Of a stretch of 59,380 nt of DNA, positions 34,640 through 59,380 are shown one piece after another (the first letter of the stretch is position 1; each line of letters starts with the position of its first letter). The stretch lies in the sequence record SRR31156797_1705. One strand, 5' to 3'. Under the pieces are notes generated by a model, which saw nothing but the letters and a program-made list of their open reading frames with translations, was not told where the DNA came from and searched no databases. The position numbers and the translations under genes were made by a program.

Positions 34640-35760
34640 ATTTCGGTGTTGATGGATTCCAGAAACTTGTTGCAAACATTCTCAATCCGATATTGTTCAA
34701 CATTCTCTATCTCCATGGCGTCCCGATAATCGCCTGACAGGAAATTACTGACAGTTTTTTCATGCAGCGGGTTAGTAATGTTTAATACCGGCTTACCAAG
34801 TACAGCATAATCAATGATTTTACTGGGTAGTTGAACCCTGTTGTTGTTATCGAAATTTACCAGGAAATCCATGCCTGCCAGAAATTTTAACAATTCTCGT
34901 CTGGGTACATACTTTTTAATAATTAGCTTATCGCCCAAAATTTCCTGGTAAGGCTTTAGCAAAGAAACGGCATCAGAAAAAACGTAAACCCTGAAATCCT
35001 TTCCGGTTCCTGATAAAAATTCCAGGAATGGCCGCGGGTCGCGAATTCCCGGAATAAAACTACCCGCATAGGCGAATGTGGGCACCTTGTTATTTGCAGG
35101 TGTTGAAGCTGCGGGGGGCGAAGGATATTCATCAAAATCAAATCCCTGTGGAATGACCTTAATTTTTTTATGAAATTCAGGATAATAGGCCTCCCGTGCA
35201 CCTTCGAAGGGAATGGTCACCAGGTCAGCCTGACGCATAAACCATTTTTCGACATACCTGAAATAAAACAGCTTTCTGAAGCTATCTGTTCTTTCGCCCA
35301 TATAAGGATCACCACAATCGGCGATCCATGTCCCGGCAACCGGGTGCTTCCCGTTTCTGGCTGCAGCCACACCCCAGTGTACGGTGTGCGGCACGGCAAT
35401 GGAAATCAACAGGTCATAATCCTTTTCATGCTTTAAAATCTTTTTCAACTTAAAAAACAATTCAATATCAGGATATTCTACGGTAAGTGAAAGTATCCGC
35501 TTTATGGCGCGGGAAATCAGGCTGCCAATCCTGCCGGTACTGAAGGCCGGTACTTTCCACTTTAACGGGCCGATATCCCTGACCTTTATTTTAAAATCCG
35601 CTTCCAGTTTTCTGCTGTCCATATATTTTACCGGCGTAATCACGGTCACAAGATGCCCGATGGCTGCAAAATGCCTGGCCAGGGCAGTCGCCCTGAATGC
35701 ACGCGGGGTAATGGACGGATGAAAATGTGCGGTTACAATCAAAATTTTCTTAGCCTTCAT
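34636..35760 (-). CDS. glycosyltransferase (GT-B)
   Basis: PRAFRATALA, WIADCGDPY, LPSKIIDY; paralogue of 29183-30292. Confidence 0.75.
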   Translation of the reverse strand: MKAKKILIVTAHFHPSITPRAFRATALARHFAAIGHLVTVITPVKYMDSRKLEADFKIKVRDIGPLKWKVPAFSTGRIGSLISRAIKRILSLTVEYPDIELFFKLKKILKHEKDYDLLISIAVPHTVHWGVAAARNGKHPVAGTWIADCGDPYMGERTDSFRKLFYFRYVEKWFMRQADLVTIPFEGAREAYYPEFHKKIKVIPQGFDFDEYPSPPAASTPANNKVPTFAYAGSFIPGIRDPRPFLEFLSGTGKDFRVYVFSDAVSLLKPYQEILGDKLIIKKYVPRRELLKFLAGMDFLVNFDNNNRVQLPSKIIDYAVLGKPVLNITNPLHEKTVSNFLSGDYRDAMEIENVEQYRIENVCNKFLESINTEI

Positions 35761-36871
35761 GCAAATTCATAAGATGCGCAACGATTCGCTCTGCTGCCTG
35801 TCCGTCCCACAGTTCGGGCATACTGCCTGTTTTCCAGTTACCCTGAAACAGTTTTGTGAAGGCCGGTTCGATATTTTCCGGGTTGGTGCCGATCAGTTCG
35901 TTGGTTCCGATTTCCACGGTTTCGGGGCGCTCCGTATTGTCGCGTAAGGTCAGGCACGGAATTCCCATTACCGTGGTTTCTTCGGTAATTCCGCCTGAAT
36001 CGGTGATGACGGCTTTTGCGTGTTCGACGAGGTAGTTGAATTCGAGGTAGCCGAGAGGTTCTGTGAGAAAAAGAGACTGAGGGAGTGAGGGACTAAGAGA
36101 CTGGGAGAAGGAGAGACTGAGAGACTGAATAATTTTGCGGGTGCGGGGGTGGACGGGGAAGATGACAGGCAGACCGCGGGAAGCTTTAATGATGGCATCC
36201 AGCATCTCCCTGAATTTATTTTCCTCATCCACATTTGCAGGCCGGTGCAGGGTCATTACGATGTAATTACCTTTTACCAGTCCTGCTTCATCCCAGATTT
36301 GTGGTTTTTTGAAGCGTGGGCGGTTTTTCATCAGGGTGTCGATCATTACATTGCCCACGAAAAAGATTTGATCTGTTTTGACCCCGATTTTTCTAAGGTT
36401 TTCTCCGGCCCAATGCGATGTCGTAAAATAATAATCCGTTAGGCAATCGGTTACCATCCGGTTAATTTCTTCAGGCATTGTGATATCCAGGGAACGGATA
36501 CCGGCCTCCACATGCGCGACTTTGGTATTTAACTTTTTGGCCACGATGGAGCAAGCCATGGTGGAGGTAACATCTCCAACCACCATCACCAGATCTGCAG
36601 GGTTGCGCACCAGTTCATTCTCAAAAGCAATCATGATGGCGGCCGTTTGCTCCGCCTGTGTACCGCCGCCACAGCTCAGGTTCACATCAGGCTCCGGGAT
36701 GTTGAGTTCCCTGAAAAATGACGCACTCATTTTTTCGTCATAGTGCTGGCCGGTGTGTACCAGCCGGTATTGCAAATTTTTTCCGGCTCCTTCAGCATTT
36801 TTAATGGCATGAATGATCGGTGCGATTTTCATAAAGTTGGGTCGTGCACCAGCGATTAAAGCAATTTTCAA
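35750..36871 (-). CDS. wecB: UDP-N-acetylglucosamine 2-epimerase (non-hydrolysing)
   Basis: GARPNFMK, HTGQHYD, HVEAGIRS, MPEEINR, TDSGGITEE, RDNTERPET; TTG start at 36871. Confidence 0.93.
   Translation of the reverse strand: MKIALIAGARPNFMKIAPIIHAIKNAEGAGKNLQYRLVHTGQHYDEKMSASFFRELNIPEPDVNLSCGGGTQAEQTAAIMIAFENELVRNPADLVMVVGDVTSTMACSIVAKKLNTKVAHVEAGIRSLDITMPEEINRMVTDCLTDYYFTTSHWAGENLRKIGVKTDQIFFVGNVMIDTLMKNRPRFKKPQIWDEAGLVKGNYIVMTLHRPANVDEENKFREMLDAIIKASRGLPVIFPVHPRTRKIIQSLSLSFSQSLSPSLPQSLFLTEPLGYLEFNYLVEHAKAVITDSGGITEETTVMGIPCLTLRDNTERPETVEIGTNELIGTNPENIEPAFTKLFQGNWKTGSMPELWDGQAAERIVAHLMNLHEG
36073..36128. repeat. 7 x 8-bp degenerate tandem repeat (GAGACTGA) in frame inside wecB
   Basis: gagactga gggagtga gggactaa gagactgg gagaagga gagactga gagactga; encodes QSLSLSFSQSLSPSLPQSL. 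Confidence 0.9.
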
Positions 36872-36930
36872 TTTTAATTCTGTAAATGTCAGTACTGCAG
36901 ATTCTTTCAACAATTATGAAAACGAATCGC

Positions 36931-52980: not shown

Positions 52981-53378
52981 CGCTTTACGAATCGTAGGAA
53001 TTCATCATAATCACGTATGTAATCATCTTCTGAATATTTTGTTGACGAAACGACCAAAACTACTGTATTGGTTGCAAAATTCTCCATATGCCTCCAGAGC
53101 CCGGGGACCAGATACAATCCAAAATAACTCCGGTTCAATGAGATCGTTCTTTTTGATTTTTGGTCATCCACAACTACATCCAAACTACCCGACAATGCGA
53201 TTATTACTTCATGCTGTTTTTTAAAAGCATGTCCACCTCGTATTTGCCCACCAGGTACATCATAAATCCAGTAGCTACGTGCAATTTCAAATGGTATCTG
53301 GCTTTCATTTTCCAAGAAGGAAAGGTTTCCCTGCCTGCTCGAAATTACTGGAAACGTAAGCGTTTTAATTCTTTCCAT
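52977..53378 (-). CDS. FdtA/QdtA-family cupin (variant motif RGGHAF)
   Basis: GNLSFLE, IPFEIAR.YWIYDVPGG..RGGHAF, PGLWR, DYIR. Confidence 0.85.
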   Translation of the reverse strand: MERIKTLTFPVISSRQGNLSFLENESQIPFEIARSYWIYDVPGGQIRGGHAFKKQHEVIIALSGSLDVVVDDQKSKRTISLNRSYFGLYLVPGLWRHMENFATNTVVLVVSSTKYSEDDYIRDYDEFLRFVKR

Positions 53379-53381
53379 TGC

Positions 53382-54374
53382 TTAAAATTCCACCGTCTTT
53401 AATTTCCACTTCTTGTAATGATCGTTGATTTCGGACAATGATTCAATTTCATGATTATTAAGAAAATCCCTGAAAATACCCACATTTTCGGAAGATTTTT
53501 CAGGGATAAGTTGCGTCCTGCTATTGATATGAAGCTTAGGAGGGATGCCCAGAAACTTTTCGATAATTGCTTTTTGTTGATCGTAATTTCTAACAACATC
53601 CTCAAAATCCACAATCAATAAATTTTCTTTTGGAATAGAGTTGTATATGAAAAGTAGGTCATCATAAAGACGTTTTACTGCATCCCTAAACATTTTAAAT
53701 GCCCCTTTTCTGTCCCTTCCGTAAATTATTTCGATGAGGCCACCGGCCCATGTCTGGAAGGGCGCATCATAGGGCTGAAATAAAAATCCTGAACGGATTA
53801 TATCAGCAAACTGATCCCTTGGGTCCCGAATGCTAAAAATCATCTTGTAGGGCTCAAAAACTTTTGTCCAAATGTTTATATTCGTTGAGGGTAATATCGG
53901 TTGGTCAAACAATAGAAAATCTCGTTCATGGGCATAAATGTGCGCTATTTCCACGATCCAATCACAAGCACTTTTAATTTTAATATCCTCTGACAAATCA
54001 GATTGCAATACCACATTAAGCTTTTTAAGTGAAAGTTCATACTTTCGTTTTGATACAGCATCTATAAGAGCCGGAAATCGTTGTAAAAAACCTGATGACA
54101 ATTTATTGGAGATGATGCTGTCGGGGATGGCTTTCCTGAAAATTTTCCATTTGAGGTCATGTTCGCGCAGCGTCTTCTCAATTAAGTTAGGCCAATATTT
54201 TTTTAATTCAGGGTCTAACTGATCAGCGACATTCGCCGGTGCCCTGAAATGATTGAATTCAAAAGGGAAAACACCAACAATATCATATTCGCTCAGCAGG
54301 TCCACCAGGGCATGGGATCCCGTACGGTACAACCCTTTTATAAGGATGTTAGTGTGTGTAGTCTTTTTGGGCAT
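53382..54374 (-). CDS. sulfotransferase-like P-loop protein
   Basis: GLYRTGSHALVDLL, IRDPRDQF, VDFEDV; ATG 54374 preferred because the longer frame only translates the upstream repeats. Confidence 0.7.
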   Translation of the reverse strand: MPKKTTHTNILIKGLYRTGSHALVDLLSEYDIVGVFPFEFNHFRAPANVADQLDPELKKYWPNLIEKTLREHDLKWKIFRKAIPDSIISNKLSSGFLQRFPALIDAVSKRKYELSLKKLNVVLQSDLSEDIKIKSACDWIVEIAHIYAHERDFLLFDQPILPSTNINIWTKVFEPYKMIFSIRDPRDQFADIIRSGFLFQPYDAPFQTWAGGLIEIIYGRDRKGAFKMFRDAVKRLYDDLLFIYNSIPKENLLIVDFEDVVRNYDQQKAIIEKFLGIPPKLHINSRTQLIPEKSSENVGIFRDFLNNHEIESLSEINDHYKKWKLKTVEF

Positions 54375-54395
54375 TGGTTTGGGGTTCTCCTGCTT

Positions 54396-54638
54396 CGGGA
54401 CTGCGTCCTTCATGCTAAAGAACTGGCACCCGGTGTTAGTCAGGGACAGTCTGCCCGCCTGCGGCGAGATAAACTGCGGGACTGCGTGCTGCATGCTAAA
54501 GAATTGGTGCATGGTGTTAATTTGGGACAGTCTGCTTCGTCGCGTTGCTCCTCGCAGAGACGTGCTCCGTAGGAACTATTATTTTTGTTTTCCATGCGAA
54601 GCATGATCATTGCGAGGCACGAAGTGCCGAAGCAATCT
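54396..54638. repeat. compound intergenic repeat cluster (59-bp direct duplication plus REP-like palindromes)
   Basis: units 54396-54454 and 54477-54535; GCCCGCCTGCGGCGAG at 54453-54468; inverted pair 54529-54561 / 54607-54638. Confidence 0.85.
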
Positions 54639-54647
54639 TATGCCAGG

Positions 54648-55940
54648 TTATTGTCCTACATAGGTACGATATACCATCCCGATACCATCTTTCAACGCAA
54701 TCCTTGCTTTCCAATCCAACTTGTTTAACAAACTTACATCCAGTTGTTTCTTTGGAGTTCCATCCGGTTTGGTGGTATCCCACTGGATTTCGCCTTTGAA
54801 ACCAACGATTTCTTTTACCAGTGCTGCCAGTTCTTTGATGGTGAGGTCAACTCCTGTTCCGATATTGATGTGGGTTTGCTGCATCTCGTCGTAGAGTGTT
54901 GGCGCTTCAACGTTTTGCATGAGGTGTATGCAGGCATCGGCCATGTCGTCGACATGGAGGAATTCGCGGTAGACCTGTCCTGTTCCCCAGAGTTTTATTA
55001 CGACAGAACGAGGGGATGATGGAACGAATGAACGATCGAACGAAGGAGCGATGGAACGATTGTTTGAAGAATCGTTGGAGTCCGCATTTGATTTATTGGC
55101 TGATTGGTCAGCGTTAATACCATAGTTGGCAAGCATTTTAATAATTTCTTCTTCAGAAAATTCCCAGGCTATCCCTTTTTCCGCACTCATTCTTTCGTTC
55201 TTTCGTTCATTCTCCCTGTCTTTCGGTCCCTCTTTCTTTCCTTCGTTCTGTCTCTCTGTCGTTCTTTCGTTCTTTCCCTCTTTATCTCTTTCGATCATTT
55301 CCTTAAGAGGCCGTTTAGTCAGATCATCACGAAGTGCATTCCAATCACCCTGCTCCAGACATTTTCCCAGGTGCATTTTGCGGATGAGTGCCGGGAGGAC
55401 GTGGGATTTTTCCAGGTCGTAGTTATCGTTTGGGCCATAAAGGTTTGTGGGCATGACGGAAATGAAATTGCTGCCGTATTGACGGTAATAGCTTTCACAC
55501 ATCTTGATACCGGTAATCTTGGCAATGGCATAGGGCTCATTGGTTTCCTCCAGCGGGCCGGAGAGCAGGTATTCCTCTTTCATAGGCTGCGGTGCCATTT
55601 TAGGATATATGCAGGAACTTCCCAGGAACAACAGTTTTTTCGCTCCATATTTATGAGCCGCATGGATGATGTTGTTCTGGATCATCAGGTTTTCGTAGAT
55701 GAACTGGGCGCGGTAGGTGTTGTTGGCAACAATGCCGCCAACCTTGGCTGCTGCATCGATAACGTATTCGGGGCGTTCTTTTTGGAAAAACTTCTCTACA
55801 TCCTCCTGACGGATTAGATCCAGTTCTTCGAGCGTCCGTCCTAAAAGGTCTGTGTATCCTTTTTTTTCGAGGTTACGCCAGATAGCGGAGCCTACCATCC
55901 CAAGGTGGCCGGCGATGTATATTTTTGCGTGCTTATTCAT
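54648..55940 (-). CDS. fcl: GDP-L-fucose synthase with two repeat-derived in-frame insertions
   Basis: [64 protein letters not shown]. Confidence 0.95.
55001..55060. repeat. 8-bp tandem array (CGATGGAA-like) inside fcl
   Basis: cgacagaa cgagggga tgatggaa cgaatgaa cgatcgaa cgaaggag cgatggaa. Confidence 0.9.
55186..55300. repeat. 8-bp tandem array (TTCTTTCG-like, inverted relative to 55001-55060) inside fcl
   Basis: about 14 degenerate units such as ttctttcg, ttcattct, ttccttcg, ctctgtcg; encodes a K/E/R/N-rich insert. Confidence 0.9.
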
Positions 55941-55956
55941 TAGTATTTGTTAATCC

Positions 55957-56012
55957 CGAATGAACGTTGGAATGATGGAACGATAGAACGAAGGATTGAG
56001 CGAGTGAGTTGA
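55957..56012. repeat. 8-bp tandem array (CGATGGAA-like) downstream of the four-helix-bundle gene
   Basis: cgaatgaa cgttggaa tgatggaa cgatagaa cgaaggat tgagcgag. Confidence 0.88.
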
Positions 56013-56019
56013 AAATGGT

Positions 56020-56403
56020 TTATTTTGTTTTGAAGGTCCATTTTTCAGGCTGGGTTGACATATTTGTGAGCATCGCCAATATGTGTTCGTATTTATCGTA
56101 AAGTGGAGTATATTCTTCTGGGTCTATATATTTACATTCAAGGGCATAGTCAAGCCATACCTGGGTTTCAACAGCTTCTCCCTCTGAATCAGTTAGCTTT
56201 GCAACAAATGATTTTGGGTATCTCCTTTTTCTCCATGCTTCTGCTATATTTCCTGAAACTGACCTTGACGATCGTCTGATCTGATCAGTAAGAGAATATC
56301 GTTCTTCAATGGGGAATTTCTTGGACAATTCAAAAGTTTCCATGCCCGCCTCAAATGACAATTGAAAAACCTTGAGATCTTTGTATTTTCTGATTACATC
56401 CAT
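56020..56403 (-). CDS. four helix bundle protein (23S rRNA IVS protein / bAvd-like family)
   Basis: YKDLKVFQ, FPIEERYSLTDQIRRSSRSV..NIAEAW, EA.ETQVWLDYA..C.YI. Confidence 0.92.
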   Translation of the reverse strand: MDVIRKYKDLKVFQLSFEAGMETFELSKKFPIEERYSLTDQIRRSSRSVSGNIAEAWRKRRYPKSFVAKLTDSEGEAVETQVWLDYALECKYIDPEEYTPLYDKYEHILAMLTNMSTQPEKWTFKTK

Positions 56404-56480
56404 TTTTTCTAAGGATTTGCTACTTTTGAAATTAACTTAATAAATCACACTGTGACTAACTTTTTCATTCTAATCCTGCA

Positions 56481-56536
56481 CTCCATCAAACCATCGTTCT
56501 TTCGTTCCATCGTCCTTTCACTCTATCTTTCTTTGG
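56481..56536. repeat. 8-bp tandem array (TTCCATCG-like, inverted) upstream of the four-helix-bundle gene
   Basis: ctccatca aaccatcg ttctttcg ttccatcg tcctttca ctctatct; overlaps the gmd stop codon. Confidence 0.88.
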
Positions 56537-57557
56537 CTTTCCTAAAATCCGCTTCTACCATGATCCTCACCAACTCCTTAAATGTCACCTTCGGCTGCCA
56601 GCCGAGTTTATCTTTTGCTTTGGCATAATCGCCGATGAGCAGGTCTACCTCCGTGGGGCGAAAGTAACGGGGATTTATACCTACCACTTCTTTGCCGTTG
56701 CTTTTGCGGTAGCCTTTTTCGTCGACGCCGGTGCCTCTCCATTCAATTTCTTCACCAAGCACCTTGAATGATTCTTCTACAAATTCACGTACGGTGTGGG
56801 TTTCATTGGTTGCTAAAACAAAATCCTCCGGCTTTTCAACCTGTAGCATCCGCCACATGCCTTCCACATATTCAGGTGCATAGCCCCAGTCGCGTTTTGA
56901 ATCCATGTTTCCAAGGAGTAGTTTATCCTGTTTTCCTGCCATGATCTTTGCCACAGCTACACTGATCTTACGCGTTACAAATGTTTTGCCTCTTCTTTCG
57001 CTTTCGTGGTTGAAAAGGATGCCGTTGCAGGCAAACAGATCGTATGCCTCCCGGTAATTCACCACAATCCAGTAAGCATAAAGCTTTGCCGCAGCATATG
57101 GACTACGGGGGTAGAATGGTGTGGTTTCTGTTTGCGGCACTTCCTGTACCTTACCATACAATTCGGAGGTGGACGCCTGGTAGAATTTTGTTTTGATGCC
57201 GGTTTCCTTGATGGCATCCAAAAACCTCAGGGTACCAACGCCATCAACTTCAGCAGTATATTCGGGAACTTCAAAAGAAACCTGCACATGGCTTTGCGCC
57301 CCCAGGTTATATATTTCATCAGGATTTACTTTTTCGACCAGCCGGTTAAGGTTGCTGGAATCAGTTAGATCACCATAATGAAGGAAAAACCTTTTGTTCA
57401 AGAGCTCTGGCTTATTGTAAATGTGATCAATCCTGAATGTATTAAAAGAACTTGCTCTTCTAATGATTCCATGAACTTCATAGCCTTTTTCAAGAAGCAA
57501 TTCGGTTAAATAGCTTCCGTCCTGGCCGGTGATTCCTGATATGAGTGCTTTTTTCAT
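56523..57557 (-). CDS. gmd: GDP-mannose 4,6-dehydratase
   Basis: [61 protein letters not shown]. Confidence 0.97.
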
Positions 57558-57607
57558 TATTGTCGGGTTGTTATTGTTTTCAGATTAGGTATTTTGGGTT
57601 TGGCGTG

Positions 57608-58087
57608 CTACCCGAATCTGTTTTTGATGTAGGTAAATACACTTTGCCAGACATCTAAAATCAATTTATAATGTTGCCCTAATAGGTTCAGGCCTTCAAT
57701 AACCTCTTCGGTGTTAAACGGATACTCGTGGGTAACAATATTTCTTGTTTCCCTTAGTAGTTGCCAGTCCCTGGCATTTTTAATAATACTTAGCTCTTCA
57801 AGTTTGTTCAACAAATCAATAAAAGGTATTCCTTTGACTTTTTCTCCAAGATTTTCGAGTATTGCGGGAAACAATTTGCCACCCATGCTATCCTGTAACT
57901 TTGAAAACCGAAATATCAACTGGTCAAAGAAGCTTATCTCCTCTGATGCCAAAGCATTATATTTTTCGGTATTCAGTGGAAAATGCTTTTTGATTTTCTT
58001 ATAAGCAAAACTCATCCTTTCGATGTGAGTTGTGCAAAGCAAAACTGCTTCGTTTAATTTATCCGGTTTTTCATTTCCGATATCCAT
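57608..58087 (-). CDS. HEPN-domain protein (putative toxin of an MNT-HEPN pair)
   Basis: DQLIFRFSKLQD.MG and an RxxxxH motif (RNIVTHEY). Confidence 0.8.
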   Translation of the reverse strand: MDIGNEKPDKLNEAVLLCTTHIERMSFAYKKIKKHFPLNTEKYNALASEEISFFDQLIFRFSKLQDSMGGKLFPAILENLGEKVKGIPFIDLLNKLEELSIIKNARDWQLLRETRNIVTHEYPFNTEEVIEGLNLLGQHYKLILDVWQSVFTYIKNRFG

Positions 58088-58106
58088 TACAAAGGTTTTA
58101 GTGGGA

Positions 58107-58409
58107 TTACAACCTGACTTGCTGACTTATAATAGAATGATAAAAATTGATTTTCTTTCTTAAATTATCATTGTCAAACACCACGTCAATTTTCCTGTTG
58201 CCAATTATTGCCTTCAGGTCAGCCAAAAAGCTAACTTTCTTTTCAATTGAAAATAATTGGGCATCGATATTTTTTATCAACAAGTCGATGTCTCCACCTT
58301 TTTTGCGATCATCGGTTCTGGAGCCAAACAGGAAAACTATTGTCCCGGTTCCGAAATGTTTTCGGGCGAGATTTTTAATTGTATCGATTTCAAATTTACT
58401 TAATCGCAT
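58107..58409 (-). CDS. minimal nucleotidyltransferase (MNT) domain protein
   Basis: MRLSKFE, FLFGSRTDD..KGGDIDL, KIDVV. Confidence 0.88.
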   Translation of the reverse strand: MRLSKFEIDTIKNLARKHFGTGTIVFLFGSRTDDRKKGGDIDLLIKNIDAQLFSIEKKVSFLADLKAIIGNRKIDVVFDNDNLRKKINFYHSIISQQVRL

Positions 58410-58417
58410 TGTTAGTT

Positions 58418-58445
58418 GTTCCGCGTTTCGTGTTCGGAGTTTCTA
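58418..58445. repeat. 4 x 7-bp GTTYCGN-like tandem array
   Basis: gttccgc gtttcgt gttcgga gtttcta; overlaps the AbiEii-like stop codon. Confidence 0.7.
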
Positions 58446-59108
58446 TATTTCGGTTTTGATTTTTCTGAGTTCTTCGGTGAAATAGTCAGCTATATGGTTT
58501 TTTGAAAGTATTTCAACCGGTGACAAATGAACGGCTATGTTTTCTTCTTCAATATCAACTGTGTAAATCAGGGTTTCGGAGTAAGTTATTGGTGACAAAC
58601 ACGGAAACAATGATTTGGTTTGATGAATGATATCTTTTAATGGATAGTGGTACTTTGTAAGCATAAAAAGGTCGTAATAGTCGCGGATCGTGTTTATTTG
58701 CGCAATGGCAGCCAACTTCAGGATTGCAATTGTTTTTGCATCGCAAATATTAACCTTCCCATAGTGAAATGCATGATTTTTCACACTAAAGCCGATATCC
58801 ACTGCACTGGTACTAAAGAAGGTTAACTTAACTGTATCAACAATCATATCAACCTGCCAGCCATTGTCCTGTCTGATAATTTTATATCCTGGAAACAGCT
58901 TAGAAATATTTCTTTTAATGGAGTTCAGGTTAATCTGTTCAGCATCAATCACAAAATCCAAATCCTCAGATAGCCTGTGCTCAATCTGCAATGACAACGC
59001 TGTACCCCCAACAAGAACAAAATCTGAAATGAATTTCTGTGCGGCCAGTTTGCTAAAAACCAAGGCCGTTGCGGGCGGCATGGCCTGAAGATTTATTTCC
59101 CTGCTCAT
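58443..59108 (-). CDS. AbiEii/AbiGii-family nucleotidyltransferase (type IV TA toxin-like)
   Basis: FVLVGGTALSLQIEHRLSEDLDF; K..A.......RDYYDL. Confidence 0.88.
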   Translation of the reverse strand: MSREINLQAMPPATALVFSKLAAQKFISDFVLVGGTALSLQIEHRLSEDLDFVIDAEQINLNSIKRNISKLFPGYKIIRQDNGWQVDMIVDTVKLTFFSTSAVDIGFSVKNHAFHYGKVNICDAKTIAILKLAAIAQINTIRDYYDLFMLTKYHYPLKDIIHQTKSLFPCLSPITYSETLIYTVDIEEENIAVHLSPVEILSKNHIADYFTEELRKIKTEI

Positions 59109-59338
59109 TCTGCTGCAATTACTTTGTTAAAAAAATTGATCCTTTTTTTGAATCGTTCCCTTTCTTTCCATTCTGTAAGGATGTCTTCCAGCGTATTTTT
59201 TTGGATCATTTTGTTTAAGGTCAGCAAATCTTGTACTTCCCCATAGGATAGCACCCTTCGGACAACGACCTTTTCAGGAAGGTCTGCATTTTCCTTGTAT
59301 GACCAAAAAAGATATTTTGAGAAATGAGAAGTTTTCAA
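59105..59338 (-). CDS. small putative antitoxin (DUF6922-like) coupled to the AbiEii-like gene
   Basis: 77 aa; YLFWSY...VVRRVLSYG...D; ATGA overlap with the downstream gene. Confidence 0.65.
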   Translation of the reverse strand: MKTSHFSKYLFWSYKENADLPEKVVVRRVLSYGEVQDLLTLNKMIQKNTLEDILTEWKERERFKKRINFFNKVIAAE

Positions 59339-59355
59339 GATTGTTGTTCGGTGTT

Positions 59356-59380
59356 CGCCCGCCTGCGGCGAGGTAAAGTG
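59356..59380. repeat. 25-bp terminal direct repeat, copy 2
   Basis: identical to 1-25; preceded by 7-bp units gttcggt gttcgcc. Confidence 0.95.

Follow-up and report, generated by a model that had tools for sequence, protein, structure and literature searches.

A four-helix-bundle gene between complementary octamer arrays in a gmd-fcl operon: comparison with the intervening sequences of 23S rRNA

The 23S rRNA gene of Coxiella burnetii contains an intervening sequence (IVS), in which an S23p open reading frame (ORF) is located in the loop of a terminal stem; RNase III cuts out the IVS, and its 5' side is AG-rich (PMC4990558). The sections of that paper on this element also describe two to three tandem GACAGAT heptamers upstream of the ORF, the number of which varies between strains, and cite Leptospira, Brucella, and Xanthomonas as other hosts of ORF-bearing IVSs. 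In this study, we analyzed a stretch of DNA of 59,380 nucleotides (sequence record SRR31156797_1705; hereafter, the window), in which gmd and fcl are separated by a gene that encodes a 127-aa four-helix-bundle (4HB) protein of the 23S rRNA-IVS protein family and is flanked by two complementary arrays of short degenerate repeats. A preliminary description, made from the letters of the window, had noticed this arrangement and proposed it as a candidate for an undescribed system. That claim was not upheld, since the anatomy matches the ORF-bearing 23S rRNA IVSs as they are presented in those sections of PMC4990558. We found the gene and its arms to form a unit in most relatives, and the same repeat words to recur in frame inside neighboring genes.

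Apart from the IVSs, arrays of short repeats have been described without such a gene, and a literature search (supplements excluded) gave no description of this cassette class outside rRNA. In cyanobacteria, they are known as short tandem 7-nt repeats (STRR). The TAACTGA heptamers of Beggiatoaceae are direct repeats for which a regulatory role was proposed, and the text on these repeats makes no mention of the 4HB protein family (PMC4679880).

The genes of the locus were arranged on the minus strand in the order gmd, 127-aa ORF, and fcl. The product of the 127-aa ORF (56020..56403, minus strand) matched PF05635 (E 6.6e-31; 107.1 bits against a cut-off of 33.8; residues 8-113 of 127) and TIGR02436 (E 2.8e-27; 95.1 bits against a cut-off of 24) in profile searches. 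As both scores are above the curated cut-offs and the full domain is covered, the protein belongs to these families, and the preliminary description of a TIGR02436 gene between gmd and fcl was correct. gmd (56523..57557, minus strand) encodes a GDP-mannose 4,6-dehydratase of 344 aa (TIGR01472, 581.7 bits; PF16363, 511.9 bits), and fcl (54648..55940, minus strand) encodes a GDP-L-fucose synthase of 430 aa, which matched NF047922 in two stretches. In the Protein Data Bank, only two relatives of the 127-aa protein were found by sequence, 2rld and 2gsc, both of them distant and uncharacterized and with 5 chains per entry. The 4HB protein matched no defence family in PADLOC. The gene is under strong purifying selection: the dN/dS value was 0.04 in comparison with a 91%-identical relative, and an internal stop was absent in 79 of the 80 matches to the protein described below.

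The two arms were delimited using Tandem Repeats Finder, an inverted-repeat search, and a phase scan. The upstream (5') arm (56474..56537, minus strand) consists of degenerate, purine-rich octamers that read (GANN)n on the mRNA strand, and the downstream (3') arm (55954..56017, minus strand) is a complementary pyrimidine-rich array, (NNTC)n on the mRNA strand, which begins 3 nt past the stop codon of the 127-aa gene. The unit is approximately GAACGAWN with GA at every 4 nt, giving a finer period of 4 nt. Tandem Repeats Finder reported period 8 at 55962-55995 (4.2 copies, 76% matches) and at 56494-56534 (5.1 copies, 63% matches), and the inverted-repeat search gave arms of 33 nt at 55974-56006 and 56479-56511, which were 85% complementary with 472 nt between them. 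The upstream array includes, in its first units, the stop codon TAG of gmd (56525..56523) and the last codons of this gene; the gmd of same-subtype relatives extends 2-5 residues beyond the end of the window gmd. When the window was scanned with a 4-nt phase, five GA/TC arrays were detected, whereas the remaining 14 dinucleotides gave none. The same phase scan detected no GA/TC array in 880 kb from 80 related fcl loci, and the pattern GAACGANNGAACGANNGA was absent from the five genomes with the most similar gmd. Thus, the repeat arrangement, with inverted 8-bp arrays on both sides of the gene and the upstream one supplying the gmd stop, was confirmed as being far beyond chance.

Pairing of the two arms can give a stem of ~60 bp, which is imperfect. 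The arm-arm RNA duplex was calculated to have an energy of -52.9 kcal/mol, compared with -38.8 for the lowest of 300 shuffles (z -6.0), and the arm complementarity score was 20.5, whereas the maximum among 368 displaced controls from the window was 14.5. A long-range stem was present in both the minimum free energy (MFE) and the centroid structures of the 601-nt region. In the predicted fold and the duplex energy, the locus therefore has the complementary termini forming an enclosing stem that characterize an IVS.

Subsequently, the gene and its flanks were compared across relatives. A metagenome scan with the 127-aa protein gave 80 loci (51-91% identity), 74 of which had enough flank for scoring of upstream-downstream inverted complementarity; at least five rows are near-duplicates (L143/L148, L164/L168/L169, L172/L176, and L190/L194). 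Using 1296 displaced controls from the same loci, the flanking inverted complementarity was above the 99th percentile of the controls in 60 of the 74 relatives and above the 95th percentile in 64. Among 16 additional cassettes, taken from other subfamilies or genomes, 13 also passed the 99th percentile, namely L004, L058, L021, L002, L003, L077, L096, and six of the eight strong ones in genome G063. These results show that the gene and its arms form a unit in most relatives, as had been proposed at the outset. The flanking frames were co-oriented with the small gene in 112 of 137 cases. Two PF05635 genes in tandem were observed in each of two loci (L138:275-1077 and L146:4001-5378); the direct upstream-downstream similarity at L138 scored 58, which points to a duplicated cassette.

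The repeat word was found to co-vary with the protein lineage. GAACGA upstream together with TCGTTC downstream, at least twice, was present in six of the seven relatives at 73% identity or more versus none of the 73 below this value; the GAACGA word was also found in genome G107, whose protein is 72.6% identical. The words in more distant relatives differ (GGGGACTT, GGCACGAA, GGTGACTT, GAGAACTT, and GGGCGGGA). Synonymous sites are saturated in the comparisons of relatives (pS 0.65-0.88), and the word is shared nonetheless.

For a comparison at the population level, contigs from four sequencing runs were used. The window is contained in full in one of these runs, from which it probably derives. 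The cassette is also present in contigs of another study (590 nt, ~97% identity), gap-free across the gene and the upstream arm. A contig of run X3 has ~16 extra bases, corresponding to two units, at 55970-55983 in the downstream arm; the arrays thus change in unit number. Joints were also encountered in this comparison, in genes of the SDR family. Their sides were 20-52 nt long (most of them <30 nt) with 85% likeness, and we took them as cross-mapping of paralogues and not as excision.

We lean modestly toward the reading that the locus is an IVS-type 4HB cassette, that is, a selected PF05635 gene inherited with complementary arrays and placed co-directionally inside the gmd-fcl mRNA operon, where its transcript would be processed by analogy with IVSs. 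The gene, selfish but selected, would be inherited together with its two complementary arrays of short degenerate repeats. By analogy with the 23S rRNA IVSs, the stem in the operon transcript would be cut by RNase III, and this cleavage would release the small-gene message and separate the messages of gmd and fcl; the cassette would consequently do little harm where it is located. The arms are envisaged as unstable tandem arrays that would seed nearby satellites, either by slippage plus template switching or by local copying, and the cassettes would spread between genomes into spacers of co-transcribed genes. Our best guess for the activity of the 4HB protein is binding to the arrays around its own gene, in the form of either RNA or DNA. 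What this locus adds is a repeat family that is semi-independent in its behavior, apparently seeding same-word in-frame satellites at recurrent permissive loops of adjacent genes, with a fixed polarity of the G-rich strand.

Several observations weigh against an IVS-type cassette. As a whole, the 601-nt region did not fold more stably than shuffled sequences (z -0.63), with 5 of 20 shuffles being at least as stable. The long stem looping out the gene, which the preliminary description had suggested, was borne out by the duplex and by the stem in the MFE and centroid structures, but not by the stability of the fold as a whole. The arms are only 65-85% complementary, and their mismatches comprised 329 G:U versus 367 A:C; with no G:U excess, there is no sign of selection for pairing of the sense RNA. 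Furthermore, the upstream arm forms a more stable pairing with an array inside fcl (-62.3 kcal/mol) than with the downstream arm, and the case for RNA processing at the locus is one of analogy alone. In 14 of the 74 relatives, the flanks did not rise above the control level, and the arrays of some cassettes are direct instead of inverted (L106, L108, L138, and L154). No empty-site, excision, or inversion junction was seen in the contigs of the four runs, which cannot show absence. Finally, in G063, a different species whose gmd and fcl DNA are 68-69% identical to those of the window, none of the places with the GAACGA word was near its 10 PF05635 matches, no 4HB gene was found in the 20 loci fetched, and its own 4HB proteins were at most 43% identical to the window protein.

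Two relatives, G063 and G107, were used for the genome-wide comparison of arrays and 4HB genes. G063 was the only one among 401 Bacteroidales genomes in which the GAACGA pattern was frequent (87 matches versus 0 for the reversed control). The matches fell into 26 places, which were spread over 21 contigs and often lay at contig ends; the pattern formed mosaics there with six or more other octamer words. Since these places lack the gene, arrays can persist, and apparently multiply, without a cognate gene adjoining. A strict specificity between protein and word, which we had considered, was weakened by this genome, as it has the GAACGA word and no close relative of the protein. In two intergenic regions of G063 (L129:3260-4100 and L128:7250-8640), several octamer words were arranged in series with modules of ~130 nt repeated; the words of the mosaics include GGTTGATG, TTGTTAAT, GGAACGAT, AGTAACAA, CCACCAAT, and CCGGATGC, and many of the arrays end contigs.

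The arrays of G063 would be expected if a lineage-wide family of short tandem repeats were spread by host replication and repair alone and the 4HB gene merely lay in a repeat-accumulating spacer, having no link to the repeats. We regard this explanation as unlikely, while giving it some weight: no 4HB gene lies within 1.5 kb of array G306:C116, the fcl and wecB genes of the window contain solo arrays, an in-frame wecB array at L001 has no 4HB gene in 13 kb, and the Beggiatoaceae heptamers are direct repeats, some of them in ORFs, with the 4HB family going unmentioned in the text on them (PMC4679880). A family of this kind does not account for inverted flanks above the 99th percentile of same-locus controls in most relatives or for the co-variation of word and protein. 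The array density was also 20.9 per 100 kb in the 4HB loci versus 4.4 in the fcl loci, and the arrays in fcl are associated with an adjacent cassette, with which they have words in common, as described below. The solo arrays in fcl and wecB and the 26 gene-less places did, on the other hand, overturn the earlier view that the arrays are cassette boundaries only.

Three arrays in addition to those of the preliminary description were detected in the window by Tandem Repeats Finder, the phase scan, and alignment, two of them in fcl and one in wecB. In fcl, a purine-rich array (55183..55302, minus strand) adds ~42 residues in frame just upstream of the native Bacteroidales loop, and a pyrimidine-rich array (54998..55073, minus strand) is located in frame just before the conserved V-x-I-x-LWGTG strand. 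When the window Fcl was aligned with seven homologues, these two in-frame arrays accounted for its length of 430 aa against ~355-362 aa in the homologues, and the native loop was still recognizable between them. The arrays at this site thus bracket host sequence and not cargo. The array in wecB (gene, 36913..35750; array, 36075..36130, minus strand) has a different word, approximately GAGACTGA on the plus strand, and replaces ~20 native residues by 24 in frame, as judged from the alignment to 4neq. In a structure model of Fcl, the segment encoded by the first array was predicted as a charged helix (pLDDT 53-68 for the block), and residues 280-309 had a pLDDT below 50. The model was built on a shallow alignment of eight rows and had a mean pLDDT of 74 with parts of the core also low, and it lends weak support to the array-encoded segments being loose surface additions. 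The four GAACGA-type arrays of the locus (including the regions 55180-55305, 56470-56545, and 54995-55075) can pair in alternative combinations; the best partner of the upstream arm is the distal array in fcl, and this pairing would enclose the 127-aa gene and most of fcl.

Arrays of 7-8-nt words were also observed, again in frame, in the Fcl of L002, L011, L018 (both paralogues), L021, and L058. Most of them are at the site of the second window array, before the conserved LWG(T/S)G strand, and this site carries arrays in five lineages besides that of the window. In wecB of L001, another Bacteroidales genome with no 4HB gene in the 13 kb around, an in-frame array with the word ACGAATC (L001:2983-3052) is located right after the HPRTRK motif, i.e., at the same site as the window wecB array. 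In-frame arrays therefore fall at recurrent loops that tolerate insertions, the Fcl site in at least six lineages and the WecB site in two. Across the 80 fcl loci, arrays in fcl were present in three of the five loci with a 4HB gene within 1 kb versus two of the 75 without (Fisher p 0.0012; the upstream region of L011 is unknown). The in-fcl arrays shared 7-mers with their own cassette arms at 0.23, 0.36, 0.29, and 0.51, and the sharing was 0.09 or less in 19 of 20 cross-locus comparisons. In L018, sharing between the in-fcl arrays and the gene-less spacer arrays of the same locus was 0.13, and spacer words recur in frame. Gene-less hairpin pairs were also found in frame in an epimerase of L179, a histidine kinase of L164, and fcl of L002; in the epimerase and fcl, they have the same words as the nearby arms.

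As fcl and wecB are glycan genes and the units are 7 or 8 nt, we considered whether the in-gene arrays are contingency repeats for phase-variable surface glycans, in which case the cassette would have supplied the repeats or be a bystander. Because the unit length is not a multiple of 3, adding or removing a single unit would turn fcl or wecB off or on, and unit number does vary, by +16 nt in the arm and by 21 nt between the L018 paralogues. We nevertheless judge this explanation to be very improbable. The units are degenerate (63-78% matches), which disfavors slippage, and all assembled copies are in frame. The sole difference within coding sequence is a multiple of three units, namely the 3 x 7 nt between the L018 fcl paralogues, and the array-carrying neighbors include genes unrelated to glycans, such as the histidine kinase of L164.

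The arms also had a fixed strand polarity. G exceeded C in the first arm in all 60 subfamily loci (binomial p ~2e-18, the loci being related) and in ~10 of 12 informative cassettes of other subfamilies, and purines predominated in the first arm in 59 of 61 loci. In both arms, the G-rich strand runs 5' to 3' toward the center. Since this arrangement is unchanged by reverse complementation, the polarity is independent of gene orientation. The same order was observed in the few gene-less pairs seen (window fcl, L179, L164, and both sides of L140). The polarity might arise from a purine-rich leader that serves to translate the small gene or, as another candidate, from extension of ends at breaks.

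The latter candidate leads to a bolder explanation, in which the 4HB protein, as a relative of the reverse-transcriptase cofactor Avd, would be the specificity factor of a repeat-writing system, by which arrays of a lineage-specific word of 7-8 nt would be laid or maintained in cis around its gene and in DNA nearby, within ~1 kb and with the G-rich strand toward the center. The inward geometry of the G-rich strands is what would be expected if both ends of a break were extended in a telomere-like fashion and rejoined with or without the gene between them. If this were true, the stems of IVSs, the unexplained heptamer and octamer repeats of bacteria, and the in-frame insertions in enzymes would have a single origin. 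We consider the idea quite improbable. Separately, a reverse transcriptase as an obligatory partner of the cassette was looked for in three incomplete genomes; four matches to PF00078 over the cut-off were found in the array-rich G063 and none in the cassette carriers G107 and G003.

The junctions between gmd and fcl were then compared among the 80 fcl loci. gmd was directly upstream of fcl in 54 of them, with a spacer of 235 nt or less in 46; in the eight spacers longer than 250 nt, a 4HB gene was present in four (L004, L021, L058, and, as a decayed copy, L002). The 4HB genes of these four spacers each have their own repeat word and ~29% identity or less to the window protein (tblastn; L004 and L058). 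G063 also has the order gmd-4HB-fcl, with another protein and the word GGTTAATT. The cassette type of the window (72.6-91% protein identity, GAACGA arms) was located between gmd and fcl in L136, L137, L141, L144, and G107. The gmd of G107 is 84.5% identical to that of the window. In L137, L141, and L144, however, gmd is 56-61% and fcl 55-64% identical, whereas the small protein is 74-78% identical. The small protein being more alike than its flanking genes suggests that the cassette may have moved between different gmd-fcl operons. Presence and absence of the gene among relatives agreed with the expectation of the preliminary description for these junctions; breakpoint polymorphism in the arrays did not appear, the +16-nt change in unit number being the only variant found.

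A few further features of these junctions were observed. On the contig with the nearest relative of the cassette (L136:1-400; 91%), gmd continues after about residue 106 with only its last residues before the array; this internal loss of ~0.7 kb may reflect either a true deletion or an error of assembly. Two gmd-fcl spacers without a 4HB gene (L020:5953-6000 and L018:1702-1813) consist largely of arrays of 7-8-nt words, which may be remnants of lost cassettes. Several 4HB genes or fragments were found per glycan locus in some cases, with three to four matches in L002 (frameshifted) and three in L021, all on the operon strand.

All 13 matches of the 4HB profile in the 80 fcl loci were on the strand of fcl. 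Beyond these loci, the neighbors of same-subfamily cassettes were mostly histidine kinase/response regulator pairs, CusB/CusA, OppB/OppC, DUF1553/DUF1552, and other pairs, which outnumber sugar genes. The cassette is therefore not specific to glycan operons, and the earlier notion of a device for inserting cargo into such operons was abandoned. Furthermore, a cassette lies between an AlbA_2 ORF and an HATPase_c_4 ORF in L192, L196, L203, and L211, and between two pieces of a DegT aminotransferase in L161; these cassettes appear to sit inside normally single genes.

Insertion into single genes, together with the presence of the same cassette at the gmd-fcl junction of two gmd subtypes, would also fit a DNA element of the foldback or MITE (miniature inverted-repeat transposable element) type. 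The arrays would then be terminal repeats recognized, in the form of hairpin or duplex DNA, by an enzyme encoded elsewhere; the form with the gene would be the full element, and the gene-less pairs and solo arrays would be miniature derivatives, as the in-frame hairpin pairs with nearby-arm words in the L002 fcl and the L179 epimerase might be. Scanning of 54 window ORFs against profiles revealed no transposase, integrase, or reverse transcriptase domain in the window, in agreement with the earlier statement that the cassette has no transposase of its own. By eye, no target-site duplication was seen at the fuzzy borders of the arrays, for which no formal search was run, and no empty-site or excision contig was found among those of the four runs. 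The fcl arrays flank native sequence, which implies two events instead of one insertion, and in wecB, the array takes the place of native residues instead of being an added block. We thus hold a foldback-type element to be improbable, though less so than repeat writing by the 4HB protein.

The genes of the window are polysaccharide biosynthesis genes, on a single strand throughout. Small genes resembling toxin-antitoxin genes are located directly upstream of gmd (57608-59338, minus strand). Among them, a nucleotidyltransferase (58409..58107, minus strand; PF18765, 28.7 bits; below the cut-off of the MntA model) adjoins a 159-aa ORF (58087..57608), and an AbiEii-family protein (59108..58443, minus strand; PF08843, 54.9 bits) is preceded by a 77-aa ORF.

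If the unit character of the IVS-type 4HB cassette holds, rRNA intervening sequences would be a special case of a much wider type of cassette in ordinary operons. PF05635, a large family, would gain a concrete partner in its own repeat arrays, and in-frame entry of repeats into neighboring enzymes would contribute to variation in protein length and to breaks in assemblies. This could also be why the 4HB family is found "associated" with repeat arrays in large screens. A figure legend in PMC10910872 places the family among genes associated with CRISPR adaptation modules, which we treat as a lead only. Any mechanism will have to account for the fixed polarity of the G-rich strand and for a word that persists although synonymous sites are saturated.

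Rickettsia palindromic elements are selfish, unique palindromes of 100-150 bp, located in frame in protein genes at tolerated sites; the insertions of the window differ from them in being arrays of short words, and the Rickettsia elements are not known to have a gene-bearing parent form. Eukaryotic foldback transposons have terminal inverted repeats made of short tandem units, and their loop may carry genes; some copies have a transposase. They belong to another domain of life and another size range than the window cassette, and no homology is implied. Avd, the accessory protein of diversity-generating retroelements (DGRs), forms pentamers and has a distantly related four-helix-bundle fold, and the window relatives 2rld and 2gsc have 5 chains each. 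Unlike Avd, the window protein scored only 19.6 bits against the cut-off of 80 for the Avd equivalog NF033474 and is thus not assigned to Avd; neither a reverse transcriptase nor a DGR template or variable repeat was found in the window.

The arrays resemble STRRs and the Beggiatoaceae repeats, as far as the text on the latter describes them (PMC4679880), in having tandem units of 7-8 nt that are lineage-specific, mostly intergenic and near start codons, and sometimes placed over gene ends or in ORFs. Unlike those repeats, the window-type arrays are paired and complementary around one gene family, with a fixed polarity of the G-rich strand. The likeness is closest to the 23S rRNA IVSs. Both have an S23p/PF05635 ORF in a stem loop, and the sections of PMC4990558 on the element describe, for the IVS, a host unit that is highly transcribed in the same direction. 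Those IVSs are located in helix 25 or 45 of the 23S rRNA, whereas the window cassette lies in a gmd-fcl mRNA operon; an Rfam scan of 53000-59380 gave no rRNA or other relevant family, the sole match being a plant microRNA with an E of 0.97. The stem of the IVS is described there as near-perfect and 28 bp long, in contrast to the long degenerate octamer arrays that form the window arms, and the ORF of the Coxiella IVS is decaying, whereas the window gene is under strong purifying selection. Unlike in the 23S rRNA IVSs, moreover, arrays with the same word are also located inside the neighboring coding genes of the window.

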